A stretch of DNA of 64,000 nucleotides from Candidatus Nomurabacteria bacterium (GCA_023267215.1 JAHFNS010000002.1:128892-192891), one strand, 5' to 3'; shown: positions 1,806 to 18,418, numbered from the stretch's first letter. Numbers and translations are program-made. The notes: a model not told the origin generated them from the sequence alone.

Positions 1806-1811
1806 GGCATA

Positions 1812-3005
1812 TTAACCCAATATTTTTGTGACCACTCCTGCACCTACTGTTTTACCTCCTTCGCGAATAGCAAATCTCTGCGCTTCTTCAAGGGCAACTG
1901 GAGTAACTAATTTAACTGTGATCTTTACTGTATCTCCAGGCATAACCATTTCTACTCCTTCAGCGAGAGTTACATCTCCAGTAACATCTGTCGTACGAAT
2001 ATAGAATTGAGGTTTGTAACCTTTAAAGAATGGGGTGTGACGTCCACCTTCCTCTTTTTTCAAAACATAAATCTCACAAGTAAAATTATCATGTGGAGTA
2101 ACTGTACCTGGCTTTGCAAGGACCTGTCCACGAGTAATATCTTCTTTCTTTAATCCACGAAGCAATACTCCGGCATTGTCTCCAGCCATACCTTCTTGTA
2201 AGTTTTTGTTAAACATTTCAATACCAGTAACGGTTGTTTTTTGAGTAGGTTTAATTCCAACAATTTCTACTTCCTCACCAACCTTTACTACTCCTCTTTC
2301 TATTTTACCAGTAACAACTGTTCCACGGCCTTCGATTGAAAATATATCTTCAACAGGCATAAGGAAAGGTTTGGTAACATCTCTTACTGGAATAGGAATA
2401 TAAGTATCAAGAGCATCGGTTAATTCAAGAATTTTCTTTGCCCATTCATCGTTCAAATCTTTTGCTTCAAGAGCTTTCAAGGCAGAACCTCGAATGATAG
2501 GTGCATTTACACCATCAAAGCCTTGTTTAGTTAGAAGTTCACGAATTTCTTCTTCCACTAAATCAAGCATATCTTTATCATCAACCATATCGCATTTGTT
2601 TAAGAAAACGATCATTTTTGGAACACCAACTTGTTTTGCAAGAAGAACGTGTTCACGGGTTTGTGGCATAGCACCATCTGTAGCGGCAACCACCAAAATA
2701 GCACCGTCCATCTGAGCGGCACCTGTAATCATGTTTTTAATGTAGTCAGCGTGACCTGGAGCATCAATGTGCGCATAGTGACGAGCGTCAGTAGCATATT
2801 CATTGTGTGAAATGTTAATAGTGATTCCACGAGCTTTTTCTTCTGGGGCATTGTCGATTTGGTCAACACCACGAAGTCTGACTGTTTTACCAGCCATATT
2901 AAGCACATGCAAAATTGCCGCAGTTAAGGTTGTCTTACCATGGTCAACGTGACCAATGGTGCCGACGTTAATATGCGGTTTATCTCTTTTAAATTCTTCT
3001 GCCAT
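1812..3005 (-). CDS. tuf: Elongation factor Tu
   Basis: 397 aa with [23 protein letters not shown]-motifs and full EF-Tu domain II/III similarity. Confidence 0.95.
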
Positions 3006-3118
3006 AATATTTTTTTAATAATGAGAACTCAGTGTACGAGAACCAGTCACTAAGGCCTTATTACTAACTTGTCCGCCTCTGGCGGGCTTAATTAAACTAA
3101 TAATTTTAATGCTTTTAT

Positions 3119-3151
3119 AAAAAAACCAACAGAAAAACTGCAAAAGTGCAG
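3119..3151 (-). terminator. Rho-independent terminator downstream of pyrF
   Basis: Hairpin CTGCAAAAGTGCAG (3138..3151); on the minus strand it is followed by a T-rich run (A-run 3119..3137 on +). Confidence 0.5.
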
Positions 3152-3190
3152 TTGTTAGTATAGTAGCAAATTGATAAAAAATGTCAAATC

Positions 3191-4000
3191 TTATGACAGT
3201 GCCCTATATTTTTTAATTTCTTCAAAAAGTTTTCTAGCTTCCTCTTTTGGATTATCTGCAAAAATGATACCCCTAGAAGAATTTATTATTAATCCTAATC
3301 CTTCTTTATTTAATCCTGATTCAATGACTGATTTAACATCCCCTCCTTGTGCCCCTATCCCCGGAACAAGGAAAGTCATATCAGGGACGAATGAGCGAAT
3401 CTTTTTCATTTCTTCTGGATAAGTCGCCCCAACCACTAACATACAATTATTATTTTTATTCCAAATATTTGAAACTTTTTCCGCCACAATTTGCCAAAGT
3501 TTTTTATCTTCAATTTCTAAATCTTGGAATTCTCCTGCTCCAGAATTTGAGGTCCTACAGAGAATTATAGAAGTTTTATCTTTTCTATCTAAAAAAGGTT
3601 TCAGAGCTTCCTCCCCTAAATACGGATGCAAAGTTATCGCATCAAAATTTAACCAATCAAAAGCCATATACACATAGCCATTATTAGTATTACCAATGTC
3701 CGCACGTTTCGCATCTAGGATAGTAAAAATATCTGGATATTTTTGTTGTAAATATTCCATAGTCATTTTTAACTCTTTTAGGCCTTGGTCTCCTCTAGCT
3801 TCGTAAAAAGCAATATTTGGTTTATAAGCAGCCACATATTCATTTGTTTCTTCTATAATATATTTATTAAATTCAAATTGTGGAAATTCTAATTTTAAAA
3901 ATCTTTCAGGAATTTTAGAAAAATCTGCGTCTAAACCTACGCATAAAAGTGAATTAATTTTCTTTGCTCTTTCGTTGTATTTTTCTAAACTATTCATCAT
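3191..4000 (-). CDS. pyrF: Orotidine 5'-phosphate decarboxylase (long/type 2 form)
   Basis: LCVGLDAD, DAKRADIGNT and VPGIGAQGG motifs; last gene of the pyr operon. Confidence 0.85.
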   Translation of the reverse strand: MMNSLEKYNERAKKINSLLCVGLDADFSKIPERFLKLEFPQFEFNKYIIEETNEYVAAYKPNIAFYEARGDQGLKELKMTMEYLQQKYPDIFTILDAKRADIGNTNNGYVYMAFDWLNFDAITLHPYLGEEALKPFLDRKDKTSIILCRTSNSGAGEFQDLEIEDKKLWQIVAEKVSNIWNKNNNCMLVVGATYPEEMKKIRSFVPDMTFLVPGIGAQGGDVKSVIESGLNKEGLGLIINSSRGIIFADNPKEEARKLFEEIKKYRALS

Positions 4001-4004
4001 AAAT

Positions 4005-4676
4005 TTACCTCACCCCTTTGCCCCTCTCCTTATTAAGGAGAGGGGTTGGGGAGAGGTTCTTCTCTATTAAATACTTTTTTCCATGACCAACAGTAATATT
4101 TATCGGCACACCTGCTTTACACAAAGGACAATCCTCGGCAGAATATGTCGGTATGTAAAGATCAGAAAGTGCCCCAAAAGGCACTTTAAAAATATCTATA
4201 TCCAAATCTTTATTTTTATTTACCAAAGCACAAGCTCCAATAATGTTTCCACCAGCATTTTTTACCGCTTCTATAACTTTCAAAACAGACCCACCAGTAG
4301 TGACAATATCTTCAACTATCAAAATATTTTTATTATCTTCTACATATTTTTCATATCCACGAGTAAAAATTTGTTTACCCTCAAGACTTTTTTCAGTATA
4401 TATTCCTAAAACTTCCTTACCATACATTTCACTTAAATGCCCTGCGACATATTGAGAAAGAATAATTCCACCCAAAGCAGGACCCACAACCACTTCAATA
4501 TTTTTATCTTTATATTTTTCTGCTAATATTTTACATATTTCAGAAGTTTCTTTTGTATGTGGATATAAAAAATCTTTATTTACATAAGTGTCAAAATGTA
4601 ATCCTGAAGTACCCACAAAATGCCCCTTCGGTAATATCGCTCCAACTTTATTTAAAATATCAAGAATTTCATTCAT
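4005..4676 (-). CDS. pyrE: Orotate phosphoribosyltransferase
   Basis: PRTase PRPP-binding motif ILIVEDIVTTGGS. The C-terminal 17 aa are encoded by a palindromic repeat element (see repeat copy A). Confidence 0.85.
   Translation of the reverse strand: MNEILDILNKVGAILPKGHFVGTSGLHFDTYVNKDFLYPHTKETSEICKILAEKYKDKNIEVVVGPALGGIILSQYVAGHLSEMYGKEVLGIYTEKSLEGKQIFTRGYEKYVEDNKNILIVEDIVTTGGSVLKVIEAVKNAGGNIIGACALVNKNKDLDIDIFKVPFGALSDLYIPTYSAEDCPLCKAGVPINITVGHGKKYLIEKNLSPTPLLNKERGKGVR
4007..4058. repeat. Palindromic repeat element copy A (CCTCACCCC box + CCCCTCTCCTT/AAGGAGAGGGG hairpin)
   Basis: ACCTCACCCCTTTGCCCCTCTCCTTATTAAGGAGAGGGGTTGGGGAGAGG. It overlaps the pyrE 3' coding end and supplies a GGTGAGG SD-like sequence 8 nt before the pyrF ATG. 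Confidence 0.7.
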
Positions 4677-4680
4677 AATT

Positions 4681-5766
4681 TTATATTAACTTTTCTTTTA
4701 TCTCTCTTGCAAGATATGGGTTCCACATTGCCCCCGTAGCAGACATTACGAAATCTGCTCCTGCTTTTCTGTATTCAAAAAAATCTTCTGGTGTCATCAC
4801 TCCTCCAACACCAATAATTGTAAAATTAAATCCAAATTCTTTTCTTAATTCCTTTAACCTTTTCACCATATAAAGTCCTGCCCATTTTATCGCATGTCCA
4901 CAGATTCCACTACGAAGTCTCCCCTTACCGGGTAATGCTTGGTTCCCATTTTCATCTACAACTTCTGCAGCAATGGTATTAATAGCAGATATTCCCTGCA
5001 CAATATTACCAATCTTTTTCACAAAATTCTTTAATTCCTCAATGTCAGCAAAATATCCAATTTTTATAATTAATGGAATATTTCCAATCACTTCCTTAAT
5101 AGCTTGTGCTACTAATACTGAACGATCAGTATCATAACAAAGTAAATTATTTGTACCTTCATTGGGACAACTTAAATTTACTTCCATCACTTGCACACCT
5201 GTATCTTTTAAAAACTTGGCAGTGATACGATAATCATTAATATATTCTTCTACACTCTGTCCATTTTTCTTGGTCCCTTGAAATGCACCAACTACAATTT
5301 GTCCTGATTTCGCATATTTTATTACTTCTATTAAATCTTTCTGCCAAAAAGTTGGTTCAAAAGAAGGAACTCCAAATGAATTAGTTATAGAGAAAGGTTC
5401 CTGATAATCCCTATTCGCAACTAATTTACTTTGTGCTTTTTCTATTGTTAAATCCCCATTAATTTTTACTGATAAAATATTGGGCCATAAGTGACAAGGA
5501 TATTTCTCACTTCTAACAGTTTTATAAGTAACAATATCAAAACCCTTATCAAGTGCTGCTTTTACAAAATTACCATTAATAAGCGGACCAGCTGGAATAC
5601 CAAAGGGTGAATTTATTTTAAAACCTAAAAAATCATAAAGACGGGAAGGGCTCTCCTTCCCATTCTGGGAAGAAAAGTCCTTCCCGTCAGCAAATGCACC
5701 AAAAGGTCCATTTTTTAAATTTTCTTCATAAGATTTTTCTGGATCATAAAATGGAGTGTAAAGCAT
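4681..5766 (-). CDS. pyrD: Dihydroorotate dehydrogenase (class 1-like)
   Basis: GIPAGPLING, NLSCPN and flavin-binding C-terminal motifs (GVGGV); sits between pyrB and pyrE. Confidence 0.85.
   Translation of the reverse strand: MLYTPFYDPEKSYEENLKNGPFGAFADGKDFSSQNGKESPSRLYDFLGFKINSPFGIPAGPLINGNFVKAALDKGFDIVTYKTVRSEKYPCHLWPNILSVKINGDLTIEKAQSKLVANRDYQEPFSITNSFGVPSFEPTFWQKDLIEVIKYAKSGQIVVGAFQGTKKNGQSVEEYINDYRITAKFLKDTGVQVMEVNLSCPNEGTNNLLCYDTDRSVLVAQAIKEVIGNIPLIIKIGYFADIEELKNFVKKIGNIVQGISAINTIAAEVVDENGNQALPGKGRLRSGICGHAIKWAGLYMVKRLKELRKEFGFNFTIIGVGGVMTPEDFFEYRKAGADFVMSATGAMWNPYLAREIKEKLI
5640..5688. repeat. GC-rich nested palindrome inserted in frame in the pyrD 5' region
   Basis: 10-bp inverted repeat GACGGGAAGG/CCTTCCCGTC flanking an inner CTTCCC..GGGAAG palindrome; encodes DGKDFSSQNGKESPSR in the pyrD N-terminal region. 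Confidence 0.5.
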
Positions 5767-5780
5767 ATTATTATATTTAA

Positions 5781-6698
5781 TTATACCTCAAAAAGATATT
5801 GAAATAATGCCATACGAACATAAAGACCGTTCTCTGCTTGACGAAAATAAGCCGCACGCGAATCTTGGTCTATCTCTTGCTCAATCTCATTTACTCTAGG
5901 CAGGGCATGCATGATGATGGCTTCTTTTTTTAATTTTTCTAAATGTTTCATTTTGAGCAAAAAAGTATCTTTGACTTTTTCATAATCTTTCATATTAACA
6001 AAACGTTCTTTTTGCACACGTGTCATATATAGAACGTCAACTTTAGACAAAACTTCTTCCAAGTTTTTTATTTTTTTGAAAGAAATATTTTTTTTCTTAA
6101 AATAATCAATGTATTCTTTAGGTAATTCTAATTCTTTTGGTGAAACAAAATAAAAAGTATTTTTAGAATATAAATTCAATAGAGGGATAAGAGAATGAAG
6201 TGGTCGGCTATTTAATAAATCTCCGACAAAAGCAAAAGATAAATTGTTAAGTCGCCCATGTTCTTTTTTTATAGTATAAAGATCAAGCAAAGCCTGTGAA
6301 GGGTGTTGATTGTTTCCATCACCAGCATTTATAATCGGCTTACTTGAAACTTTAGCCGCAGCCTCTGCTGTACCCGTTTTGGAATGGCGCATTACTATCA
6401 GGTCCGCATAGGAACAAAGCATTCGTGTCGTATCTTCTATAGATTCTCCTTTATAAGCTGAGGAATTGCTTGTTGCATTCTCTACTGAAATGACACTGGC
6501 TCCCAATTTTAACGCCGCTGTTTCAAAAGACAAACGTGTTCTAGTGGAAGGTTCAAAAAAAACACAAGCAACCACTTTATCTTTTAAAACTTTTTGTACT
6601 TTTCCAGTCTTACATTCTTTCTCCATTTTTTCTGCATTTTTCAAAATTCTTTCAACATCTATCTTCGATAATTGTTTCGTATTTAAAATATGATGCAT
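5781..6698 (-). CDS. pyrB: Aspartate carbamoyltransferase catalytic subunit
   Basis: FFEPSTRTRLSFE carbamoyl-phosphate-binding motif and HPSQALLDL. Confidence 0.9.
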   Translation of the reverse strand: MHHILNTKQLSKIDVERILKNAEKMEKECKTGKVQKVLKDKVVACVFFEPSTRTRLSFETAALKLGASVISVENATSNSSAYKGESIEDTTRMLCSYADLIVMRHSKTGTAEAAAKVSSKPIINAGDGNNQHPSQALLDLYTIKKEHGRLNNLSFAFVGDLLNSRPLHSLIPLLNLYSKNTFYFVSPKELELPKEYIDYFKKKNISFKKIKNLEEVLSKVDVLYMTRVQKERFVNMKDYEKVKDTFLLKMKHLEKLKKEAIIMHALPRVNEIEQEIDQDSRAAYFRQAENGLYVRMALFQYLFEV

Positions 6699-6713
6699 AA
6701 GTTTATTTTTATA

Positions 6714-9700
6714 TTAATTTTGTAAATATTCTTTATACGACTTAATTTCCAAATCTGAAATCTTGTAATGCCCAAGAGCTTTGATAAAAGCCCTAGCTAA
6801 ATGCAAATCAGTAAATAATGGAATCTGATTATCTACTGTGGCTCTCCTTATACGGAATCCATCTGTAATACTATTTAATTTAATCTTACTCTCCAATTTG
6901 TTTTTACTCAAATTCACCACAAAGGCTACCTTCTTACTTATGATAATATCAAGAGCATTTGGGGATTGCTCAAAAGCTTTCCGCACAACCATGCAATCTA
7001 TATTGTGACTTTTTAAAAATTCTGCAGTTGTATCAGTAGCAAAAATTTTATAACCAATATTTATTAATGTATTAACCGCTTCTAAAAATTTAGCTTTATT
7101 GAGACTTCCCCCTAAAGAAAGAAGGACAGTTTTTTTATCAACATCAAACTTATTAGTACTAAAAATTGATTTTAATAACGCTTCATCATAATCTTTACCG
7201 AAACAAGCCACTTCCCCAGTAGAAGACATTTCTACTCTTAACACTGGATCAGCACCAAGCAATCGAGCAAAAGAAAATTGTGGTGATTTCACAATTACAT
7301 TTTTGGGATATATAAATTTATGTGCCAAAGCTTTGCCAAAAAAAGCATCTACTGCTATTTCAGGAAAATTCGCATCCATCGCTTTGGATAAAAGTGGAAA
7401 AGTACGGCTAGCACGCAAATTGACCTCAATAACAGATGGTCGATTGTCTTTAACTAAAAATTGAATATTAAATGGCCCGGTAATATTAAGTTCTTTAGCA
7501 ATTTTTTGAGAAATTTCTCGTAACTGAAATTCTGTAGAAGCATAAACTCTCTGGGTCGGATACACAATAGTAGCATCACCAGAATGGACACCAGCATTCT
7601 CTACATGTTCGGAAATACCATAAATCATAATCTGACCTCCTTGTGCTACTGCATCAAATTCAAGTTCTTTGGCATTTTCTATGTATTGTGAAATAGTAAT
7701 AGGATATTCCCCACTTAATACTACGGCTTTACTTACAAAATTCCGCAATTCATTTTTGTTATAACATACACTCATTGCAGAACCAGAGAGAACATACGAT
7801 GGACGTACTAAAACTGGGAAACCTTCAATCTCTATAAATTTCAAAGCTTTTTGCATGTTAGTGAAACTCTGCCATTTAGGTTGTGTAATGTTTAATTTAT
7901 CTAAAAGAGCAGAAAATAAATTTCGATCTTCGGCTCGATCAATATCAGAAGCACTGGTACCTAAAATGTGAAATCCCTCGGTAGAAAGTTTCTTAGCTAG
8001 ATTATTAGGACGTTGACCACCGACAGATATTATAAGTCCATACGCACATTCGAATTCAAAAATATCAGCTACGGTTTCAAAAGACAAATTCTCAAAATAA
8101 AGACGATCTGACATATCATAATCAGTAGAAACAGTTTCTGGGTTACAATTTATAATAATAGACTTTTTTTTGTGTCTTTTAAGCGCCATAGCCGTATAAA
8201 CACAAGACCAGTCAAATTCAACACTTGAACCAATATGATAGGGGCCACTACCAAGTACTGCAATCGCTTTATCTCCTAGTGGTAATACATCGTTATGATT
8301 ACCATGATATGTCAGATACAAATAATTCGTCTTGGAAGGCACTTCCCCAGCAAGAGTATCAATAGCAAATATGCTTGGTTTAATACCAAAACTTTTTCTT
8401 AATTTACGAATTTGAAATTCTGTCTTTCCACAGAGTATGCCAATTTTCTTATCAGAAAAACCAGTCTGTTTTAATTCAAGCATTTCTTCTTTTTTTATTT
8501 CTTTTTTTTGTTTATGAGTCTTTAACAATTCTTTTTCTACTCGTACAATATTCTCTAATCTAGACAAAAACCAAGGGTTTACACCTGTTATGTTGTAGAG
8601 ATTTTTTACTGTCATCCCCTTCATTAATCCAGCTGTCAAAGCAAAAAGACGTTTTGGTGTAGGAATAGTTAAAAATTTTTTTAATTCTTTTTCATCTTTA
8701 AATCCATTATCAGTCACACCTTCTATGAGACCTGATTGCATGCGTACTGCTTTCTGTAAAGCTTCTTCAAAACTCCTACCAATAGCCATAACTTCCCCCA
8801 CTGATTTCATAGCACTAGTGATTTGTTCTTCTGCGCCTTTAAATTTTTCCAAATCCCATCTCGGCATTTTAATAGCTACATAATCAAGGGCAGGTTCAAA
8901 AAAACTTTGCGTTACTTTTGTAATTTTATTTTTTATTTCAATTAAACTTTTACCCAAAGCAAGTTTAGCTGCCACATAAGCAAGCGGATAACCAGTCGCT
9001 TTCGATGCAAGTGCACTAGAACGAGAAAGACGTGCGTTAACTTCAATAACAAAATAATCTACTTTCCCATCCACAGTAGAAGCAGATGGATTAAGAGCAA
9101 ATTGTACGTTACATTCGCCAACTATCTTGAGACTTTGCACAATTTTTATACTTGCTTCTCTTAAACTATAATACTCTCGATTTGATAATGTTTGACTAGG
9201 TGCAATAACTATAGAATCACCTGTATGAATACCCAATGGGTCAAAATTTTCCATATTACATACGGTTACTATATTATTAAATTCATCTCTAACGACTTCA
9301 TATTCTATTTCTTTAAAGAAATGCAAATATTTTTCTATTAGGACTTGTGGACTTATCGCAAGAGCTCCCTCAACAATTTCTTCCAATTCTTTTTCATTTG
9401 TAGCTACTCCAGATTTCTGTCCACCCAAGGCAAAAGCTGCACGAATCATAAGTGGAAAACCTATTTCTTTTGCAATTTTTTGTGCTCCTTTTAGATTAAC
9501 AGCTGAACCGGAAGGTGGAATGGGAATATCAATACTTTTTAAATGATCAGCAAAAAGTTGCCGATCTTCTGTGAGTTTAATAGATTCTGTGGAAGTTCCT
9601 AAAACTTTTATATTATATTTCTTAAATACACCTTTTGCTTCTAAGTTCAAACCGCAATTGAGTGCAGTCTGTCCACCAAATGAAAGCATAATACCATCTG

Positions 9701-9944
9701 GTTTTTCTTTGGCTATAACTTTTTCCACAAAGTAATCATTAATCGGCAAGAAATAAACTTCATCTGCTAAAGATTTTGATGTCTGAAAAGTGGCAATATT
9801 TGGATTTACTAAAATAACTTTTATTTTTTCTTCCTTCAAGGCTTTTATCGCCTGACTACCGCTATAATCAAATTCACCTGCTTCACCTATTTTTAACGCG
9901 CCAGATCCCAACACTAATATTTTTTTAAATTTTTTCTTATTCAT
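6714..9944 (-). CDS. carB: Carbamoyl-phosphate synthase large subunit
   Basis: 1076 aa with duplicated ATP-grasp halves and an MGS-like C-terminal domain; overlaps the carA stop by 4 nt. Confidence 0.95.
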   Translation of the reverse strand: MNKKKFKKILVLGSGALKIGEAGEFDYSGSQAIKALKEEKIKVILVNPNIATFQTSKSLADEVYFLPINDYFVEKVIAKEKPDGIMLSFGGQTALNCGLNLEAKGVFKKYNIKVLGTSTESIKLTEDRQLFADHLKSIDIPIPPSGSAVNLKGAQKIAKEIGFPLMIRAAFALGGQKSGVATNEKELEEIVEGALAISPQVLIEKYLHFFKEIEYEVVRDEFNNIVTVCNMENFDPLGIHTGDSIVIAPSQTLSNREYYSLREASIKIVQSLKIVGECNVQFALNPSASTVDGKVDYFVIEVNARLSRSSALASKATGYPLAYVAAKLALGKSLIEIKNKITKVTQSFFEPALDYVAIKMPRWDLEKFKGAEEQITSAMKSVGEVMAIGRSFEEALQKAVRMQSGLIEGVTDNGFKDEKELKKFLTIPTPKRLFALTAGLMKGMTVKNLYNITGVNPWFLSRLENIVRVEKELLKTHKQKKEIKKEEMLELKQTGFSDKKIGILCGKTEFQIRKLRKSFGIKPSIFAIDTLAGEVPSKTNYLYLTYHGNHNDVLPLGDKAIAVLGSGPYHIGSSVEFDWSCVYTAMALKRHKKKSIIINCNPETVSTDYDMSDRLYFENLSFETVADIFEFECAYGLIISVGGQRPNNLAKKLSTEGFHILGTSASDIDRAEDRNLFSALLDKLNITQPKWQSFTNMQKALKFIEIEGFPVLVRPSYVLSGSAMSVCYNKNELRNFVSKAVVLSGEYPITISQYIENAKELEFDAVAQGGQIMIYGISEHVENAGVHSGDATIVYPTQRVYASTEFQLREISQKIAKELNITGPFNIQFLVKDNRPSVIEVNLRASRTFPLLSKAMDANFPEIAVDAFFGKALAHKFIYPKNVIVKSPQFSFARLLGADPVLRVEMSSTGEVACFGKDYDEALLKSIFSTNKFDVDKKTVLLSLGGSLNKAKFLEAVNTLINIGYKIFATDTTAEFLKSHNIDCMVVRKAFEQSPNALDIIISKKVAFVVNLSKNKLESKIKLNSITDGFRIRRATVDNQIPLFTDLHLARAFIKALGHYKISDLEIKSYKEYLQN

Positions 9945-11047
9945 TTTATTTTATCCTTTTTATTTATTAAACCAGCTTTTTCTAAAAAGAAATCAAATAT
10001 CCAATCAGTATCAAGTGGCCCTGGAGAACTTTCTGGGTGGAACTGTACAGACATAAAAGGCAATTTTTTATGAATAATCCCTTCATTGGTATTATCGTTA
10101 GCATTATAAAACCATTCTCTAAATCCAGTCGGTATCTTTTTGACAGAAAATCCGTGATTCTGCGTTGTAAGATAACATCGTTTTGTATCATTTTGTACAC
10201 AAGGTTGATTTTGACTACGATGCCCAAATTTAAGTTTGTAAGTAGTACCACCAGAAGCAAGAGCTAAAATTTGATTCCCCAAACAAATACCTAAAATAGG
10301 AATTTTTTGTTTAATAATTTTTTTAACATTTTTTATTGTTGCTTTCGCTTTCATTGGGTCCCCTGGACCATTGGAAATTACCACACCCCTAAATGGAAAA
10401 TCAAGTTTTGTGACATCTGTATCCCAGGGAACTACAACGATTTTAAATCCTCGAGCAACCATCCTCCTCAATATATTAAATTTCATTCCACAGTCTATAA
10501 CTACAATCGTCTCTCTCCCGATACCAAATTCTTTTATTTTTTTTGTAGAAACTTCAGCTGGTAAATTTCTCAAATTTGGATCTACAAAGGAAATTTTTTC
10601 ATTGTTTTTTTTCTGATCAAATTGAATCTTGCCTAACATTACTCCCTCTGTTCTTAATTTTTGAGTAAGTCTTCTGGTATCTTTTATTTCCAATGCTGGG
10701 ATATTTTGTTCTTTCAACCAAGCTCCAAGAGACATTTGAGATGCATGGTGAAACGGTGTATCAATATAATTACAAACTATTAATCCTGATATTTGTATTT
10801 TTTCAGATTCCCATAATTCCTTTCTGGGCACACCATAATTACCAACTAGAGGATATGTTAAAACCAAAATTTGACCTCTAAAAGATGGGTCTGTTAAAGC
10901 TTCTGGGTAACCTACCATACCGGTTGCAAAAACTACTTCACCAGAAATAGATTTTAGAGAAGAAATATTAGCACCAAAACTTTTACCTTCATAGGAACTT
11001 CCGTCTTTTAATATCAATTTAACTTTTTTATTATTTTTACTTCTCAT
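9941..11047 (-). CDS. carA: Carbamoyl-phosphate synthase small (glutamine amidotransferase) subunit
   Basis: GICLGNQILA catalytic-Cys motif and class I GATase His (FHPES). Confidence 0.9.
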   Translation of the reverse strand: MRSKNNKKVKLILKDGSSYEGKSFGANISSLKSISGEVVFATGMVGYPEALTDPSFRGQILVLTYPLVGNYGVPRKELWESEKIQISGLIVCNYIDTPFHHASQMSLGAWLKEQNIPALEIKDTRRLTQKLRTEGVMLGKIQFDQKKNNEKISFVDPNLRNLPAEVSTKKIKEFGIGRETIVVIDCGMKFNILRRMVARGFKIVVVPWDTDVTKLDFPFRGVVISNGPGDPMKAKATIKNVKKIIKQKIPILGICLGNQILALASGGTTYKLKFGHRSQNQPCVQNDTKRCYLTTQNHGFSVKKIPTGFREWFYNANDNTNEGIIHKKLPFMSVQFHPESSPGPLDTDWIFDFFLEKAGLINKKDKIK

Positions 11048-12284
11048 ATATTTTACCTTTTACTATAGTCATAATTACACTCCCCGGAAAAGTCATCCCC
11101 TCAAATGGGGACCATTTGCATTTTGTTTTCAATATTTCTTTTGTAATAAGAACTGGTTTATTCATATCAATTACCGTCAAAGATCCTATATATCCCTCTT
11201 TTACTTCTCCATATTTATTTTTTGTAAATTGATTGATAAATTTAGCTCCATTATAACTGCAAACTCTAACAATTTCTTTTTCTGTAAAATTATGTTCCTT
11301 CATAAGCCAAGTGGCGAAAGGTCCGTAAGTATCTAAATGTGGTATACCAGAAATCCCTTTTTCCTTTTCGGTCATTGTGTGTGGAGCATGATCAGTGGCT
11401 AAATAATCAATATCTCCATTTTTTAAAGCATTAATCAAATAAAAACTTTCCTCTGTCCCGCGAATAGGTGGATTAACTTGAAGCATCTTTTCTCTATTTT
11501 TATCTAAGGCAAATCCATCTTGGTTAGAGAAAAATAAATGATGAGGTGTTATCTCTACCGTTACATTTATTCCACGTGTTTTTGCATCTATTATTTTTTT
11601 AATTCCTTCTATGGTGGAACAATGACAAATTTTCCCAATGAGTTTGTATTTTTCTATTAAATAAAGCGCAAAATCTACAGCAGAGATTTCTGCTTCAGGT
11701 GGTCTTTGCAGTTCGTGAGTCGATTGACCTTTATTCATTTCCAAAATTTCAAAATCTTCACAGTGAAAACTTACATATTGTCCTTCATATAATTTTATAG
11801 TATTTTCTAATTCTTTTTTAGAGCTAAAAAATAATTCTCCTATAGAAGGACCCATAAAAACTTTATAAGGTACAAATTTTGAAAGAGGTTTTGTGTAGAG
11901 TCCAATGCCAGCATAGAGTAATATTTCTATGGAAGACTTTCTAGTTAATTCTTTTTTTTGTTCATAGTTTTCATCATTTGTTGGAGGGACGGGATTATTA
12001 GGCATTTCCGCTATCGCTACCACTCCGCCATTTATAGCAGCCTCCCCAACTGTTTTGAAGTCTTCTTTATAGTCTTGTTTATGACTTATATCTTCTCTTG
12101 CATGAACGTGTATATCTATAAAACCCGGGAAAATTAATTCATCTTTAAAAACAAAATCTGCGGAACCTGTCGGCTCGTTTACTTTAGTAATCAATCCACT
12201 TTCTTGATCAATCTCGATTCTACGACGAATTTGTTCAGTGTTGTTTATAACAACACCTTCTATTGTAAGAATATTATTAGGCAT
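11037..12284 (-). CDS. pyrC: Dihydroorotase (amidohydrolase family)
   Basis: DIHVHARED metal-binding motif and DHAPH motif; first gene of the pyr operon. Confidence 0.8.
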   Translation of the reverse strand: MPNNILTIEGVVINNTEQIRRRIEIDQESGLITKVNEPTGSADFVFKDELIFPGFIDIHVHAREDISHKQDYKEDFKTVGEAAINGGVVAIAEMPNNPVPPTNDENYEQKKELTRKSSIEILLYAGIGLYTKPLSKFVPYKVFMGPSIGELFFSSKKELENTIKLYEGQYVSFHCEDFEILEMNKGQSTHELQRPPEAEISAVDFALYLIEKYKLIGKICHCSTIEGIKKIIDAKTRGINVTVEITPHHLFFSNQDGFALDKNREKMLQVNPPIRGTEESFYLINALKNGDIDYLATDHAPHTMTEKEKGISGIPHLDTYGPFATWLMKEHNFTEKEIVRVCSYNGAKFINQFTKNKYGEVKEGYIGSLTVIDMNKPVLITKEILKTKCKWSPFEGMTFPGSVIMTIVKGKIYEK

Positions 12285-12304
12285 ATAGTTTATTCTTTAT
12301 TAGA

Positions 12305-12332
12305 CAAAAAAATAACCCCACGACAGGGGCTG
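12305..12332 (-). terminator. Weak terminator-like hairpin downstream of the hypothetical gene
   Basis: CCCCACGACAGGGG hairpin followed on the minus strand by a T-run. Confidence 0.35.
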
Positions 12333-12453
12333 TTTTAATAGAAAATATAAAAGAGAGAAAAGTGCGAATATGGGGTCGATTCTTAAGAATTAATTGCATT
12401 CTAAACATTAGGTAGAATAATACACCTTTTTAAAAAGTGAACAAGTGGAAAAC

Positions 12454-13143: not shown

Positions 13144-13187
13144 GTAATTATAACAAATTTTTTATTTTCTTACTGCAATGATAAGTT

Positions 13188-13382
13188 TTATCTTTTCTTA
13201 ATTATTGGCACACCTAGATCTTCACAAATCTTTTTTCCTATATGAGTGTTAATTTCATTATGCCTAGGAATAGTAGATGTCCTACCTGTAAAAGTATTAC
13301 ACCAAACACTATGAGAACCACCTTCCCTCAGAAAAACACACCCATATTTACGAATGTGTTTTATAAGATCAATTTGCTTCAT
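13188..13382 (-). CDS. hicA: HicA-family toxin (mRNA interferase)
   Basis: 64 aa: KELIKxLxKxGxxFxRxGGSH..TIPRHxEIN pattern typical of HicA/YcfA. Confidence 0.75.
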   Translation of the reverse strand: MKQIDLIKHIRKYGCVFLREGGSHSVWCNTFTGRTSTIPRHNEINTHIGKKICEDLGVPIIKKR

Positions 13383-13388
13383 AAGAAA

Positions 13389-13616
13389 TTAAGCACAAAC
13401 AGCAAGATTTTCTCGTGTAATAATAGATCGTCCTTCAGATTTTTTTGATAAAAGACGATTACTTTCAAGTATAAGCAAAAGTGCTTCTTTTAGATTTCTT
13501 TTGGTTTCAGACAAAGTTTTACCTTGAGTATTGACCCCTGGAATTTCCTCTATCCAGCCAGAATACCATTTGCCAGATTTTTTATATAAAGCTGTAAATT
13601 GTCGTGATTGTTTCAT
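13389..13616 (-). CDS. hicB: HicB-family antitoxin (short form)
   Basis: 75 aa with a WYSGWIEEIPGVNTQGKTLSE..L.EAL core resembling the HicB N-terminal domain; 6 nt upstream of hicA. Confidence 0.65.
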   Translation of the reverse strand: MKQSRQFTALYKKSGKWYSGWIEEIPGVNTQGKTLSETKRNLKEALLLILESNRLLSKKSEGRSIITRENLAVCA

Positions 13617-13655
13617 AAGTAAAATATACTAAAAAACCAATCAAAAATCAACAAA

Positions 13656-14648
13656 CTATTTCCTCGTTGCAATGATAGTGCCTGTTATATTATGTCCTTT
13701 ACAATGAGAAAGAACTCCTAAATAAGAATCTATTGATCCTTTTGATAAATTTTCCTTCGCTTTTCGTAATAACCTTTTTTTAGTACTAGTGCGTAAAACT
13801 CTATAATGTGGAAGAATAACATAACCAAGAAAATCTATTCCTTGAGATAATTTTCTAATTTCAACCTTTCTGGGGTGTAATTTTAATTCGAGTTCTGTTT
13901 TTAAAAATTCAAAAATTTTAGGAATGATGGATTCAAGAAATTTTTTTTCCTGAGAAACAATTACAAAATCATCACAATAACGAACATAATATTTTATTTT
14001 CAATTTATGTTTAATATATTGATCAAAAATATTCATATAGACATTAGCAAAAAGTTGGCTTGTCACATTGCCGAGGGGTAATCCTTTCCCTTTAGTTTTT
14101 TCAAAACTTTTTATAATATTATTTAATAACCATTTTGTTTCTGGACATTTAATTTTTGAAAAAAGAATATCTTTTAAAATTTCATGATCTATCGAATCAA
14201 AAAATTTTGAAATATCACACTTCAAAACCCAAACATTGCGAGTATAGTTTTGTGTTTCTTTTCGTAAAAATCTTTCTAATTGATTAACTCCCGAGTGAGT
14301 TCCTTTATTAAATCGACAAGCATATGAATCATATATAAAAGATGAGTCAAAGACCTTATAAAGTTGGCGAAAAATAGCTTGATGCACTACCCTGTCCCGC
14401 ACTTCTGCTTTGTGAATATGTCTGCGTTTTGGGTCATAAACGTAAAATGGTACATACGGTTCATTTATATATGTTTTTCGTCGAAGAGAAAAGTGAATGT
14501 CTAAAATATTTTTTTCTAAATTAAACTCAAATTTTTGTATATCTGGTTTTTTATTTTTTCCACACCGAAATTCTCGCCAAGCGGAAAGAAGATTGGAAGT
14601 TGAAATTATATGATAGAATAAATCACTATGAGTACCCCCCCCCAACAT
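13656..14648 (-). CDS. Diversity-generating retroelement reverse transcriptase
   Basis: RT motifs 2-5 (RDRVVHQAI; LKCDISKFFDSIDHEIL; GLPLGNVTSQLFANVYMN, i.e. the DGR-type [LIV]GxxxSQ; YVRYCDDFVIV). No maturase/endonuclease domains. Cognate TR/VR pair sits 400-900 bp upstream. Confidence 0.85.
   Translation of the reverse strand: MLGGGTHSDLFYHIISTSNLLSAWREFRCGKNKKPDIQKFEFNLEKNILDIHFSLRRKTYINEPYVPFYVYDPKRRHIHKAEVRDRVVHQAIFRQLYKVFDSSFIYDSYACRFNKGTHSGVNQLERFLRKETQNYTRNVWVLKCDISKFFDSIDHEILKDILFSKIKCPETKWLLNNIIKSFEKTKGKGLPLGNVTSQLFANVYMNIFDQYIKHKLKIKYYVRYCDDFVIVSQEKKFLESIIPKIFEFLKTELELKLHPRKVEIRKLSQGIDFLGYVILPHYRVLRTSTKKRLLRKAKENLSKGSIDSYLGVLSHCKGHNITGTIIATRK
14635..14643 (-). repeat. G9 homopolymeric tract (C9 on + strand) in codons 3-5 of the RT gene
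   Basis: ATG TTG GGG GGG GGT (M L G G G); the only G/C run of 7 or more in the window. Candidate slipped-strand phase-variation switch. Confidence 0.6.
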
Positions 14649-14727
14649 CTCCAGTAATATTATTGAGCTCCCCGTTATCCTCCATATAAAGAGATTATAT
14701 AAAATAATATATCAATTAGAAACAAAA

Positions 14728-15015
14728 ATGCCGAAACAAAATAAACTCGGCATTCATAAAAAAGTAGAAGAATATGTTCTACGAATTTTAACTCTTTTGA
14801 TAGATTCTGCACTTCGAAGTAAACAAGACAAAATACAGACCCTAAATCAAGCACGTCGAGATATTGAAGTACTAAAACATCTTATTCGTTTAGAATATGA
14901 ACTTAATATAATAAAAGAAAAACAATATATTATTCTCGCACAAATACTTGAAAAAATATCTATGATGACAACAGGTTGGATAAAATCTTTTGGAACACAA
15001 AAGCCCTTATATTGA
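14728..15015 (+). CDS. Putative Avd-like accessory variability determinant (four-helix-bundle family)
   Basis: 95 aa. The C-terminal half (IEVLKHLIRLEYELNIIKEKQYIILAQILEKISMMTTGWIKSF) resembles the four-helix-bundle Avd family. It lies between TR and RT but on the opposite strand, and the SD is weak, so the call is uncertain. Confidence 0.4.
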   Translation: MPKQNKLGIHKKVEEYVLRILTLLIDSALRSKQDKIQTLNQARRDIEVLKHLIRLEYELNIIKEKQYIILAQILEKISMMTTGWIKSFGTQKPLY

Positions 15016-15027
15016 AGGGCTTTTGCC
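15001..15027. promoter_or_regulatory. Perfect 8-bp stem hairpin immediately 3' of the TR
   Basis: AAGCCCTT-ATATTG-AAGGGCTT followed by TTTTG; overlaps the stop of the Avd-like ORF. Could be a bidirectional terminator and/or the TR-flanking structure used for cDNA priming. Confidence 0.45.
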
Positions 15028-15037
15028 TAGAAACTTC

Positions 15038-15148
15038 TGACGGAGGCCGTTGTCGGGATTACGGTTATCACGATTGTCGTTGCTCACGTTGAACTGACCA
15101 TCGTTATTGCGGTTCATGTTCATGGCATTGCCATCCGAATCAAGGGCC
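15038..15148 (-). repeat. DGR template repeat (TR)
   Basis: 111 nt matching VR 15407..15517 except at 11 positions. All 11 are TR adenines (coding strand). Encodes Asn-rich NAMNMNRNNDGQFNVSNDNRDNRNPDNGLRQ; invariant by inference. Confidence 0.8.
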
Positions 15149-15342
15149 CTTTCTGTGAGAGTCCATCCATACCACCACATGTCTTTAAAAAAAACATATT
15201 GAGTTGTTCCGGCTCTAAAGCCGTCTCTGTTTGGAATCTTTATATTCCCTAGACTCCCACAGGCAGTTTCTATATTATGGCAAACTGTCATCCATTTTAA
15301 AATGGATCAGCTTAACAGCCAAATTATTTATATCATAAAAAA

Positions 15343-15365
15343 AGTCCTCAACATAGTTGAGGACT
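15343..15365 (-). terminator. Strong hairpin and T7 run downstream of the DGR target gene
   Basis: AGTCCTCAAC-ATAG-GTTGAGGACT (10-bp stem); on the minus strand followed by TTTTTTT. Confidence 0.55.
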
Positions 15366-15367
15366 TA

Positions 15368-15389
15368 GGTAACAAGTTAAAAAGTTACC
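15368..15389 (-). promoter_or_regulatory. Small hairpin abutting the 3' end of VR
   Basis: GGTAAC-N10-GTTACC, 4 nt after the target stop codon; position matches the VR-flanking hairpin needed for homing in characterised DGRs. Confidence 0.35.
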
Positions 15390-15393
15390 AGTT

Positions 15394-16146
15394 TTAGAAA
15401 TCTACTTGACGGAGGCCGTGGTCGGGATAACGGTAATCACGATAGTCGTAGCTCACGTCGAACTGACCATCGTTATTGCGGCTCATGCTCATGGCACCGC
15501 CAACCGAATCAAGGGCCGCAAAACGAGTAAGCCCTTTGACGTCGTACATTTTATTAGTTTCAGTACGATATCGGAAAGCAGAGATAATACCTTCTTTTGG
15601 AATCATGAATTTTATATTTTCATTAATTCCATCATCATAACTTTTGTTAAGCAAATCCGGTTCATCCCCACCGACATGACATGTTGCGTAATCACTCGTG
15701 GGACGTACCTGCTGTTCCTTAATGGATTCGGCAATGTTGTCATAATATTTCCAAACCGCATTATTGCCAAATTTTTTTGCATAGGCTTCAAAATATTGAT
15801 CTTCAGTAATATCAGTAAAGATATATTCCAGCCGTTTCATTTTTTCGTTCCATGCAGGAAGCACTATTTTTGACCAATCAATAGTACGACTGAAGAATTT
15901 TTTGTAAAAAACTTCAATTCGTCTTTTTTCTTCAATCCATGGGTCAATTTCAATTCCAAAAATTTCTTTGCAAAAATTTTCGGTAAGTTTTTCAACTTCA
16001 TGATCTGGACTTAAAACAAAGTGATTGGCACTTTCAAATGAAAGCTTTCCACTATCTCCCAAAACACGAGTGATTGTTCCGGCAATTTTAAAGCCGATTG
16101 CAACTAACTGACCTGAGGTGGCAGGTGTAATAACTTGATTTGTCAT
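15394..16146 (-). CDS. DGR variable target protein (C-terminal VR, probable C-type-lectin-like fold)
   Basis: 250 aa. The last 37 residues (GAMSMSRNNDGQFDVSYDYRDYRYPDHGLRQVDF) are encoded by VR; Tyr/Ser/His/Asp replace the TR Asn codons. No signal peptide seen. Confidence 0.8.
   Translation of the reverse strand: MTNQVITPATSGQLVAIGFKIAGTITRVLGDSGKLSFESANHFVLSPDHEVEKLTENFCKEIFGIEIDPWIEEKRRIEVFYKKFFSRTIDWSKIVLPAWNEKMKRLEYIFTDITEDQYFEAYAKKFGNNAVWKYYDNIAESIKEQQVRPTSDYATCHVGGDEPDLLNKSYDDGINENIKFMIPKEGIISAFRYRTETNKMYDVKGLTRFAALDSVGGAMSMSRNNDGQFDVSYDYRDYRYPDHGLRQVDF
15407..15517 (-). repeat. DGR variable repeat (VR)
   Basis: See TR. The 3' (IMH-like) end is GC-rich: CGGCCTCCGTCA. Confidence 0.8.
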
Positions 16147-16171
16147 TTTAGACTCCTCTTTAATTGATTAA

Positions 16172-16185
16172 GAACAATATTGTTC
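16172..16185. promoter_or_regulatory. 14-bp perfect palindrome upstream of the DGR target gene
   Basis: GAACAATATTGTTC, about 15 nt upstream of the AAAGAGGAG SD of the target gene; candidate operator. Confidence 0.3.
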
Positions 16186-16255
16186 CTATTTAGTAGGCTA
16201 GCATATTTACGGTAAAAAGTCAAGCAAAAACCAATAAAAAGGCTCTAAAATAAGT

Positions 16256-18409
16256 TTATTTACGAGACGAGATTATTACTTCAGCCACGTTTTGTGGGAC
16301 TATGTCATAACGTAAAAATTCCATAGTGAAAGATGCACGTCCTTCAGTCATTGAACGAAGACCTGTCATGTATCCGAACATTTCAGAAAGAGGAACAACG
16401 GCACGAAGCGCTTTATTCATTCCGCGATCTTCCATACCTTCAATAATTCCACGCTTGGAAGAAAGATTACCTGTGATGTCTCCCATGAATTTTTCTGGAG
16501 TAACGACTTCCACTTTCATCATTGGTTCAAGAATAACTGGTTTTGCGCGCTTACAAGCATCTTGTACAGCCATAGAAGCTGCGATTTTAAAAGCCATTTC
16601 ATTGGAGTCCACTTCATGGAAAGAACCATCCCAAAGTTCAACAGAAACATTAACCATTTTGAATCCCGCAAGTACTCCGCGATCAAGACCTTCTTTAAAT
16701 CCTTTTTCGCAGGGAGCAATATATTCTTGTGGAATAGCACCTCCTTTAATCGTATTTATAAATTCAAAACCATTCGCTCTTTTTGTATTTTTTGGTAAAT
16801 CTTCCACTTCTTCTTTTGTAAGAGGCGTCATTGGTTTAACTTTAATTTTAACGTGACCGTAGTTTCCACGTCCACCAGATTGTTTTATGTATTTACCTTC
16901 TGCATCTGCATTATTGGTAATGGTCTCACGGTAAGCCACTTGTGGTTTACCTACATTAGCTTCAACAGTAAATTCTCTTTTCATGCGGTCTACAATAATT
17001 TCCAGATGAAGTTCTCCCATTCCAGCAATAATTGTCTCCCCTGTTTCTTGATCAGTACTAACTCGGAAAGTAGGATCTTCTTGTGCGAGACGATTGAGTG
17101 CCATACCCATTTTTTCTTGGTCTGCTTTTGTCTTTGGTTCAATACGAAGTTGAATAACAGGCTCAGGGAAAATTATTCTATCTAACTCAATTGGGTGTTC
17201 TTCGTCACAAATAGTATCAGAAGTGATAGTGTCTTTAAGTCCAACAGCCGCCGCGATTTCTCCAGCAAAAACTTTTTTCATTTCTTCTCGGTCATTCGCA
17301 TGCATACGAAGTATTCGTCCTATACGTTCTTTGTTGCGAGTACGAGGATTATAGATATAAGAACCAGCGGAAAGAGTTCCGGAATAAACTCTAAAGAAAA
17401 TAAGTTGCCCAACAAACGGATCCGTGGCAACCTTAAAGGCTAAAGCAGAAAAAGGCTCTTCGTCCGAAGCATGTCTCATAATAGGTTCATCATTATTGTC
17501 TGGATCTGTCCCCCCAATAGGTGGAATATCAAGCGGAGAAGGAAGATAGTCTACAACACCGTCGAGCACTAGCTGAACTCCTTTATTTTTTAAAGCGGAT
17601 CCAGCATAAACTGGGAAAATTTCATTAGCGATAACTCCTTTTCTTAAAAGTTTTTTCAAAACAACAGCATCAGGAATTTTTCCTTCGAAATAATCATTCA
17701 TGACAGCATCATCTTGTTCTACAATCTTTTCAATAAGTTCATGATGATATTTTTCTGCATCTGCCTTCATATCTTCTGGAATCTCTTTTTCGATAACTTT
17801 ATTACCCATTTCTCCCTCAAAGTAATAAGCTTTCATTGTGAATAAGTCCACAACACCTTCATGTTTTTCTTCAAGACCAATAGGAATTTGCATGCGAACA
17901 GCTTTCTTGGTTAGACGATCTAAAATAGTTGCATATGAATGTTCAAAAGATGCACCTATTCTGTCTAATTTATTTATAAAACAAATACGAGGAACTTTCG
18001 CTTCATCAGCATAACGCCAGTTTGTTTCTGATTGAGGTTCAACTCCAGCCACTCCGTCAAAAACAACAACAGCGCCGTCTAGTACACGAAGAGATCTTTT
18101 CACTTCTACGGTAAAATCTATGTGCCCAGGTGTATCAATAATATTAAAACGGTGTTTTTTACTTTTGTCTGTTGGGGAAGCATAAGTAGGCGTCCAGAAA
18201 CAAGTGACAGCAGCAGAAGTGATAGTGATACCTCTTTCTCTTTCTTGTTCCATCCAGTCTGTGGTAGTCTCTCCATCATGAACCTCTCCTATTTTATGAG
18301 AAACGCCAGTATAAAAAAGCACACGTTCTGTCGTAGTTGTTTTACCAGCATCGATGTGTGCAATAATTCCAATATTTCTAACTTTTTCTAGTGGATAGTC
18401 TCGTTCCAT
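16256..18409 (-). CDS. fusA: Elongation factor G
   Basis: 717 aa; [24 protein letters not shown] and EF-G domains IV/V. Confidence 0.95.
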
Positions 18410-18418
18410 ATATTTATA

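Follow-up and report, generated by a model that had tools for sequence, protein, structure and literature searches.

Introduction

In most bacteria tuf directly follows fusA. What lies between the two genes in a genome where they stand far apart, and how did it come to be there? The question is raised by a stretch of 64,000 nucleotides (the window; GCA_023267215.1, JAHFNS010000002.1:128892-192891) from a Nomurabacteria-like groundwater member of the Patescibacteria with a tiny genome, in which 13,250 bp (about 13.2 kb) separate fusA from tuf. The order on the minus strand is M50-rpsL-rpsG-fusA, a diversity-generating retroelement (DGR), hicBA, hyp229, pyrC-carA-carB-pyrB-pyrD-pyrE-pyrF and tuf-rpsJ-rplC-rplD. 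The window, like all genomes compared with it, is a metagenome assembly.

A preliminary description, made from the sequence alone, had given this order, and each gene it named was confirmed, on the minus strand and within or close to the coordinates given. It had read the interval as a single 13-kb insertion. The interval is indeed extra DNA relative to the canonical str-S10 layout; insertion holds, however, for the fusA-proximal 3.1 kb (DGR and hicBA), which bears molecular scars, and not for the pyr operon. The reading proposed here, at a probability of about 0.7, is that of a layered cargo bay, in which an inherited pyr operon was joined by a younger DGR and a younger hicBA, inserted in the fusA tail and in its displaced copy. 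The parts of the locus are the following.

16256..19995, minus strand: M50-like peptidase gene, rpsL, rpsG and fusA; the str unit, left flank
13656..16255, minus strand (avd on plus): DGR cassette, comprising target promoter, target gene with variable repeat (VR), hairpin, template repeat (TR), antisense avd and reverse transcriptase (RT)
13188..13616, minus strand: hicB-hicA toxin-antitoxin cassette (Pfam HicA_toxin and UPF0150), bracketed by fusA-tail remnants B and C
12277..12444, minus strand: pyr promoter, leader open reading frame (ORF) and attenuator hairpin, from sequence and leader homology
3191..12284, minus strand: pyrC-carA-carB-pyrB-pyrD-pyrE-pyrF, de novo pyrimidine operon, from NCBIfam and Pfam matches
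3006..3187, minus strand: tuf promoter and leader, from a promoter and terminator scan and conservation in 11 loci
60..3005, minus strand: tuf-rpsJ-rplC-rplD, start of the tuf/S10 transcription unit, right flank, from tblastn synteny over about 100 loci

The pyr operon as an inherited layer

A scan of species-representative genomes with EF-G, the fusA product, yielded 80 loci, all from Patescibacteria. Most of the nearest, at 79-93% EF-G identity, bear the label Candidatus Nomurabacteria or Paceibacterota; where a fusA match ran beyond 2.2 kb, tblastn was assumed to have joined the G domain of EF-Tu to it. Further loci were added through PyrF homologues, a metagenome scan with PyrC, and RT homologues. 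Exact-sequence look-ups returned no match for EF-G or EF-Tu, and for S12 and PyrF only contigs of at most 2.1 kb from SRR14366756 and SRR14366760.

The operon holds the complete gene set for de novo UMP synthesis, all seven genes being present. Five of them (carA, carB, pyrB, pyrC and pyrF) score above NCBIfam cut-offs, pyrE reaches 148.5 against a cut-off of 150.25, and pyrD passes only Pfam DHO_dh (81.7 bits), far under every NCBIfam PyrD cut-off. About 145 N-terminal residues of PyrD (4681-5766) match no family, an extension common to the relatives, whose proteins have 359-368 residues.

Wherever the surroundings of PyrF could be read in a relative, pyr genes occupy the fusA-tuf gap. L089 carries the identical seven genes in identical order between fusA and tuf (CarB 81% and EF-Tu 92% identical). 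From the metagenome scan, L122 (EF-G 93%) has all seven in the same order with fusA directly upstream; L092 has pyrC to pyrE in the same order, again with fusA directly upstream, pyrF not being detected; and L100 has pyrC, carA, carB, pyrB and pyrD upstream of tuf. The gap holds amidohydrolase-pyrD-pyrE-pyrF in L001, L087 and L090, pyrE-pyrF-pyrD in L085, and argH-argG-amidohydrolase-pyrD-pyrE-pyrF in L084. More distant relatives (PyrC 56-68% identical) keep pyrC-carA-carB-pyrB away from both fusA and tuf, some of them with pyrD and pyrF, with or without pyrE, before pyrC. Over 120 clusters of homologues match PyrF itself at 73-86% identity; the sources named among them are Nomurabacteria, Paceibacterota and unclassified metagenome-assembled genomes.

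In a tree of EF-Tu, L3 and L4, the pyr-bearing loci form an exclusive clade at 99/100, and at 199/200 when the pyr-less L211 is added. An EF-G tree unites the window with L122, L001, L087 and L092 at 99%, and sets the pyr-less L002, L004 and L005 beside L090, L085 and L129 at 88%. By composition, the pyr block is nearer to the rest of the window than same-size background chunks are, in dinucleotide and tetranucleotide distance and in GC content at third codon positions (GC3). The pyr operon is an old, inherited resident layer at this site. The preliminary description had held that the same block at the site in related genomes would argue for ancestral organisation rather than insertion, and for the pyr part the synteny comparison finds that.

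Two side observations belong here. The fusA-side and tuf-side trees disagree on where to place the pyr-less L002, L004 and L005 relative to L085, L090 and L129; the two flanks of the interval may differ in history, and recombination within the gap could lie behind the conflict. The amidohydrolase of L001, L087 and L090 (339-345 residues) is only 27-29% identical to the window PyrC (11037-12284), and the four-gene clusters of these loci lack carA, carB and pyrB, which suggests that they use a different or partial pyrimidine pathway.

Scars of insertion in the fusA tail

The ancestral 3' end of fusA (ACTATCATTGC..AGGAAATAA) is found twice downstream of the gene on the same strand, once at the end of the RT gene and once after hicA, and fusA itself ends differently.

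16256..16279, minus strand: replacement fusA tail GTAATAATCTCGTCTCGTAAATAA, encoding VIISSRK and a stop (the protein ends EVIISSRK); divergent from the clade tail
13656..13679, minus strand: remnant B, ancestral fusA 3' end ACTATCATTGCAACGAGGAAATAG; the last seven codons and stop of RT, which ends in TIIATRK
13163..13186, minus strand: remnant C, degenerate ancestral fusA 3' end ACTTATCATTGCAGTAAGAAAATAA; directly after the hicA stop, the distal scar

In the direction of transcription, the tail copies (16279..16256, 13679..13656 and 13186..13163) form direct repeats at both ends of the cargo, one of them within the 3' end of the gene that was entered. In close relatives, fusA ends in GA(A/G)ACTATCATTGCnGCrAGrAArTAA, that is, ETIIA[AS]RK and a stop. 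Remnant B differs from the working fusA tails of relatives at three to five positions in 24, and the window's own tail at nine to 12; the nearest matches of this working tail are in distant lineages. Along its length the window fusA is about 83% identical to that of L122, falling to 56-59% over the last 27 nt, with the break right after GTGGCTGAA, at position -24.

Allowing at most four mismatches in 24, six copies of the clade tail were found in 716 kb downstream of fusA, none in 593 kb upstream, and two in 1.5 Mb of reverse complement. In L089 and L093 a toxin-antitoxin cassette is likewise bracketed by fusA-tail copies, and L017, L019 and L068 carry fusA-tail duplications of 33-66 nt with identical amino acids. 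Four remnants (B and C of the window and those of L089 and L093) begin at the same position, -23 or -24.

Between remnants B and C lies hicBA. Both proteins exceed their Pfam cut-offs, HicA with 40.3 bits (cut-off 27) and HicB with 28.1 bits (cut-off 27.3), which makes the pair a type II HicAB system. Orthologues of the two genes (92% and 81% identity) stand elsewhere in L122, between pyrB and pyrD.

13389-13616, minus strand: hicB (PF21748)
13188-13382, minus strand: hicA (PF07927)
12454-13143, minus strand: hyp229, a gene of 229 residues with no Pfam or NCBIfam match

Beyond remnant C the DNA is older. The product of hyp229 is 38.5% identical (E 9e-31) to hyp203 of L211, which stands there directly after the RT/fusA-tail junction, and the start region of hyp229 is colinear with the fusA end and the start of ORF107 in L122. 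ORF107 was considered as its counterpart and rejected, the proteins not being similar; the true counterpart is L211 hyp203. Since hyp203 and ORF111 follow the junction in L211 and L213, and ORF107 follows fusA in L122, such small genes are native neighbours downstream of fusA in this lineage, and hyp229 is one of them, outside the young insertion.

A DGR cassette that moves as a unit

The upstream part of the young block is a genuine DGR, since all differences between TR (15148..15038) and VR (15517..15407), a repeat of 111 nt, fall at TR adenines (11 of 11 mismatches).

15394-16146, minus strand: DGR target gene
14728-15015, plus strand: avd, antisense to the rest of the DGR
13656-14648, minus strand: DGR reverse transcriptase (RVT_1)

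The plus-strand orientation of avd (14728-15015) is a detail that the preliminary description had missed. The RT matches RVT_1 with 93.6 bits; the window avd reaches 37.1 bits for bAvd, under the Pfam cut-off of 40, and the avd genes of L211 and L213, 84-89% identical to it, carry a precomputed bAvd match. Upstream of the target gene is a promoter-like sequence (TTGACT at 16223..16218, a spacer of 17 nt, TGc-TAGCCT at 16203..16195), the -35 region of which is conserved with L214. Behind the target gene stands a terminator-like hairpin (15366..15342; 11-bp stem, -15.2 kcal/mol, z -5.6, T-run). Such a strong hairpin follows the target stop by 25-35 nt in the window, L058 and L012, with a T-run in the window and L012 and none in L058; it may serve in homing, as the target-recognition element of a DGR, or in termination. 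After TR lies another hairpin (15022..14995, -17.7 kcal/mol), which may act as a two-way terminator; its region (14988-15032) overlaps the 3' end of the convergent avd, and a CRISPR repeat model matched this hairpin weakly and below threshold (25 bits, E 0.27), which was taken as chance. Neither DGR hairpin matched Rfam at gathering or E-value thresholds. Viral collections yielded no relative of the target gene and, for the RT, none above 43% identity; nothing here points to a phage origin.

The same architecture recurs in L012, L058, L211, L213 and L214, and its placement in L214 bears on mobility. There, the same cassette (77% nucleotide identity over 2.46 kb; target protein 67% and RT 81% identical) lies between pgk and a convergent HIT gene, bracketed by AATTAAAGCTTTGAAATAA at the end of pgk and AATTAAAGCTTTGAAGTAA at the RT stop, which is also the end of the HIT gene; the duplicated pgk tail is identical at 18 of 19 nt between the pgk and RT ends. 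Because the cassette at pgk is bracketed by a copy of the pgk tail, it moves as a unit, and because the repeat follows the host site, fusA tail or pgk tail, it resembles a target duplication rather than an element-borne att site. Near-identical target duplication, as made by a DNA transposon, is thus seen in L214; the window copies are more diverged.

At the fusA site, the junction itself recurs. RT C-termini are fused to fusA tails in three genomes, and the junction is present in four independent assemblies (window, L211, L212 and L213). The RT homologues P0122 and P0123 (80-81% identity) end ETIITARK and ETIIAARK, each followed by a stop, and others of similar identity end in unrelated short tails. 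L211, the sister of the window on the tuf side (EF-Tu 96%), has neither hicBA nor the pyr operon, and past its junction come hyp203, an ORF of 65 residues and tuf; the L213 junction leads into ORF111, homologous to ORF107 of L122, and then pyrD.

Distant DGRs in L012 (5683-8091) and L058 (5652-8159), with RTs 47-53% identical and the order target, TR, antisense avd, RT, lie immediately upstream of M50-rpsL, a third position beside the same ribosomal array. They were tried for defining the cassette ends and rejected, their RTs being too distant at that identity.

A recurrent landing site

How unusual is a wide fusA-tuf interval in this class? The junction had been called normally contiguous in the preliminary description; among 54 related loci with both genes, the gap is at most 500 bp in only 12. 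Its median is 1050 bp, and it exceeds 500 bp in 42, 1 kb in 27 and 3 kb in 13 of the 54; in 11 further loci, tuf is absent within 3-10 kb downstream of fusA. The rpsL-rpsG and tuf-rpsJ junctions (median gaps 32 and 79 bp) are always tight and never exceed 1 kb. Two other junctions of the array are also interrupted among L001-L080: rpsG-fusA often, by more than 1 kb in 9/65 loci and by up to 7.4 kb, and rpsJ-rplC by more than 1 kb in 10/46 loci.

The cargo of relatives includes RelB and HepT/MNT toxin-antitoxin genes, an IS200 transposase, response regulators, peptidoglycan-binding and surface proteins, and an ABC/HlyD transporter; a census of gap ORFs matched 32 Pfam families, and the 25 of these that were listed include no recombinase. 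Biosynthetic cargo occurs as well, with purD and purN in L003 (13844-15945) and argH and argG before the pyr genes in L084 (2601-5099). The fusA-tuf interval is a recurrent landing site for genes in this class, and a literature search found no report of such a hot spot in Patescibacteria. An assembly of the L087 population, L088, has fusA split into two called ORFs of 241 and 470 residues (5035-7185), probably through a frameshift or sequencing error.

A compositional difference between the cargo and its flanks had been suggested as a check on insertion. No foreign signal appears in GC, GC3, dinucleotide or tetranucleotide tests: the cargo is closer to the genome background than same-size background chunks, and it is the ribosomal flanks that are outliers.

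Separate predicted promoters and a putative pyr attenuator

The interval lies at a boundary between two transcription units, since tuf has its own conserved promoter and leader. The promoter consists of TTGACA (3187..3182), a 16-nt spacer and TG-n-TACTAT (3165..3160), and a hairpin CTGCACTTTTGCAG with a T-run (3153..3136, -7.5 kcal/mol) stands directly after the predicted start. About 180 nt 5' of tuf are kept in 11 loci irrespective of the upstream gene; the conserved elements are the TTGACA box, a spacer of 16-17 nt, the TGnTAnTAT box, the CTGCACTTTTGCAG hairpin with its T-run, and a block of about 60 nt in the untranslated region. The leader has no Rfam match at gathering or E-value thresholds, and 3006-3187 is a candidate regulatory leader of the tuf/S10 unit. 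With a gap of 13,250 bp and a conserved promoter of its own, tuf does not belong to a canonical str operon here. The boundary between units plausibly explains why insertions in the spacer are tolerated.

The pyr operon likewise has its own upstream signals. A promoter (TTGTTC at 12444..12439, 16 nt, TG and TATTAT at 12424..12417) precedes a leader ORF of 43 codons (12408..12277), which encodes MFRMQLILKNRPHIRTFLSFIFSIKTAPVVGLFFCLIKNKLYA, crosses the attenuator hairpin, and ends in a stop codon overlapping the pyrC ATG. The hairpin (12331..12314, -10.8 kcal/mol) is followed by a T7 run to about 12305, and T-rich tracts lie 5' of it. Only some 10 nt part the -10 box from the leader ATG, so that the mRNA of the leader peptide appears near-leaderless. 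The pyr leader of L122 is homologous to region 12455-12285 (73% over 254 nt), and a GCCCC-loop-GGGGTT hairpin with T7 was matched just 5' of pyrC in 18 distinct leaders, both linked and unlinked to fusA. A spanning ATG-initiated ORF of 37-56 codons, ending 4-13 nt past the pyrC ATG, is present in 18/18 of them. The stem is invariant over these leaders, so covariation, of which there is none, gives support neither way; the leader matches no Rfam family at gathering or E-value thresholds.

A leader ORF that runs through an intrinsic terminator before the first structural gene is the pyrBI type of layout. Reiterative transcription is treated as part of pyrBI regulation in two papers (PMC7039003, PMC6524683). 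The window leader resembles that of E. coli pyrBI in having an ORF, some 40 codons long, that crosses a rho-independent terminator immediately 5' of the first pyr gene, and in the T-rich tracts before the hairpin. It differs in that the first gene is pyrC of a seven-gene operon, in the near-leaderless mRNA, in its host from the candidate phyla radiation (CPR), and in having no sequence similarity to the pyrBI leader and no Rfam family. Turnbough and colleagues reportedly established UTP-sensitive attenuation coupled to leader-peptide translation for the E. coli pyrBI leader; by analogy, the pyr attenuator of the window would sense UTP, coupled to translation of its leader peptide.

These elements bear on the suggestion that the cargo might be transcribed from the str promoter. 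Both terminator-like hairpins named in the preliminary description exist and fold far better than shuffled sequence, but the one it had placed after the hypothetical gene is the pyr attenuator and not a terminator of hyp229. Read-through from fusA into the target gene would be possible, because no terminator separates the two; the hairpins after the target gene and TR should then stop transcription, so that read-through beyond the target gene is unlikely and read-through into the pyr genes, which like tuf have conserved promoters of their own, is unlikely too. RT-hicBA-hyp229, the pyr operon and tuf would each be served by their own promoter-like sites.

Gene calls in the operon and its flanks

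18895-19338, minus strand: rpsL
18419-18889, minus strand: rpsG
16256-18409, minus strand: fusA (EF-G TIGR00484, 1074 bits)
11037-12284, minus strand: pyrC
9941-11047, minus strand: carA
6714-9944, minus strand: carB
5781-6698, minus strand: pyrB
4681-5766, minus strand: pyrD
4005-4676, minus strand: pyrE
3191-4000, minus strand: pyrF
1812-3005, minus strand: tuf (EF-Tu NCBIfam TIGR00485, 693 bits)
1386-1805, minus strand: rpsJ
733-1347, minus strand: rplC
60-731, minus strand: rplD

The longest rpsL ORF starts at 19338; the start at 19317 given earlier would be a later one in the same frame. A small M50-like peptidase gene (19372-19995) stands directly 5' of rpsL, a linkage kept in most related loci. 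Upstream of it rpmB (L28) is divergent, and rpoB and rpoC do not adjoin rpsL (window 19372-19995, L001-L090).

Proposed history and competing explanations

The history that best accounts for the locus would begin with an interval between two independent units, M50-rpsL-rpsG-fusA and tuf-S10. As a first layer, the UMP operon would have moved into the site in an ancestor of this Nomurabacteria subclade, with its own promoter and attenuator. The second, young layer of about 3.1 kb would have started when, in the ancestor that the window genome shares with L211, the DGR cassette entered the final 24 nt of fusA, leaving EF-G working with a substituted tail and the displaced original tail terminating the RT frame. 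Later, and only in the window lineage, hicBA would have entered remnant B, duplicating the tail to give remnant C, and L211 would then have lost its pyr genes. As L211 is the sister with the DGR and without hicBA, the DGR should precede the split and hicBA follow it. Each insertion would duplicate about 19-35 nt of the 3' end of the host gene.

Several observations weigh against this layered history. The fusA-tail copy at one end of the DGR differs from that at the other end at 12 of 24 positions; after a simple recent target-site duplication the two should be near-identical, and the difference fits an imported substitute tail or later change better. A scan for tail copies after any ORF gave weak enrichment (7 vs 2), and no flanking repeat was detected around hicBA of L122. 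The contigs of L211 and L213 start inside the DGR and lack the left (fusA) side of the cassette. No ORF of 12454-16146 holds a recombinase, transposase or integrase domain, and no terminal inverted repeats were seen by eye at the cassette ends, where no systematic search was made. Finally, the EF-G tree nests the pyr-less L002, L004 and L005 among pyr-bearing loci, which bears on whether there was one gain or several losses.

What process made the insertions is a separate matter. It is proposed, tentatively and as a possibility that is on balance unlikely, that DGR and toxin-antitoxin cassettes of Nomurabacteria are mobilised as units by an undescribed process acting at the stop-codon region of highly expressed housekeeping genes (fusA, pgk), duplicating 19-35 nt of the tail and leaving the host gene intact. 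The process could be target-primed reverse transcription by the DGR RT, or an enzyme supplied in trans. A dedicated process that duplicates its target is favoured by L214 and by the common breakpoint at -24.

Recombinational import explains other parts of the record. Paceibacteria DNA taken up by the cell would have been integrated by recombination, either homologous or illegitimate but homology-facilitated, the conserved fusA and tuf serving as arms, and the duplicated tails would be by-products of the junctions. The working fusA tail looks foreign, with its nearest matches in distant lineages, and the flank trees disagree. The tail copies of L019 and L017 encode the same amino acids with synonymous differences, as expected if both copies evolved as working tails in different genomes; ComEA/ComEC DNA-uptake genes are, moreover, present in most genomes of a freshwater CPR survey (PMC9166423). 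Against these stand the pgk-site copy, which has near-identical 19-nt repeats and no flanking homology to the fusA site, the shared start of the four remnants at -23 or -24, and the divergence along fusA, which is unchanged except in the last 24 nt. As an account of the whole, import by recombination appears improbable.

A single recent foreign island of 13 kb in a normally contiguous junction, expressed by read-through from the str promoter, is very improbable. The interval does break the canonical order, and the 109 nt from fusA to the target gene contain no predicted terminator, but the pyr genes are at the site throughout the subclade, with the same seven-gene order in L089 and L122, the composition is host-like, scars lie inside the block at two places, strong terminator-like hairpins follow the target gene and TR, pyr and tuf have promoters of their own, and the gap is variable across the class.

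That the whole arrangement, including the DGR and hicBA, is ancestral and relatives have lost parts of it has even less in its favour and is highly implausible. L211 shares the DGR and the hypothetical gene at the site, but the tail remnants are insertion scars, L122, L092, L001 and L087 have fusA followed directly by a small ORF or pyr genes with the ancestral tail intact, the same cassette stands at pgk in L214, and hicBA is elsewhere in L122.

An assembly artefact joining the DGR to fusA in a metagenomic bin can practically be set aside: although only metagenome assemblies are involved and TR/VR repeats do break contigs (L211 and L213 start inside the DGR), the RT/fusA-tail junction is present in the same four independent assemblies, the imperfect 24-nt repeats have neither the length nor the similarity to mis-join contigs, and a 325-kb contig, recorded from three sources, encodes the identical PyrF and RT proteins.

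Relation to known systems and significance

Relative to E. coli str (rpsL-rpsG-fusA-tufA) and S10, the same genes lie on one strand in the same order; unlike there, fusA and tuf of the window are 13.2 kb apart, tuf stands first in the S10 unit and not last in the str unit, and an M50-like peptidase gene precedes rpsL in most related loci.

Islands at the 3' ends of conserved genes are well known, among them tRNA and tmRNA islands and the streptococcal integrative and conjugative elements in rpsI, rplL and guaA. Archaeal casposons occur at the 3' end of aEF-2, the archaeal counterpart of EF-G, with duplications of 14-15 bp. As with such elements, insertion in the window falls in the last codons of a housekeeping gene and keeps the reading frame, and the cargo, which builds up in tandem, is flanked by direct repeats of the gene tail. 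Unlike integrative elements and casposons, the window cassettes have no integrase, Cas1, family B polymerase or transposase in or beside them, the block consisting only of target gene, avd, RT, hicBA and hyp229; the repeat, from about 19 to 66 nt long, follows the host gene and is not element-borne.

The usual view of DGRs is as fixed components of phages, plasmids or chromosomes. The cassette resembles DGRs of the Bordetella phage BPP-1 type and those of CPR bacteria in its RT, adenine-only TR/VR mismatches, Avd and, in position, a hairpin about 30 nt after VR. It departs from known DGRs in that the window avd is antisense between TR and RT, the RT frame ends in a captured host-gene tail, and the cassette is a movable unit at three positions in related genomes (fusA tail, pgk tail, upstream of M50-rpsL). 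The interval also recalls flexible genomic islands, being flanked by core genes and holding different accessory cargo among relatives (toxin-antitoxin, IS200, surface and transporter genes, and pur, arg and pyr genes); unlike these, the hot spot lies inside an array of ribosomal-protein and elongation-factor genes, and several lineages fix the insertion point to the nucleotide.

CPR bacteria have tiny genomes, the gene gain and loss of which are poorly understood. The fusA tail provides a nucleotide-resolved site of gene gain inside the most conserved gene array of a reduced genome, where blocks of 0.5-9 kb have turned over between genomes that share 96% identity in EF-Tu. A DGR cassette has moved with duplications of host-gene tails, and its mobility is now testable; if the reading of these cassettes as mobilised units is true, these DGRs would themselves be mobile elements rather than cargo carried by phages or plasmids. 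Classical leader-peptide attenuation would have a clear example among CPR bacteria in the conserved pyr attenuator, which indicates that a complete de novo pyrimidine pathway is under regulation in some Nomurabacteria; this bears on their dependence on hosts.

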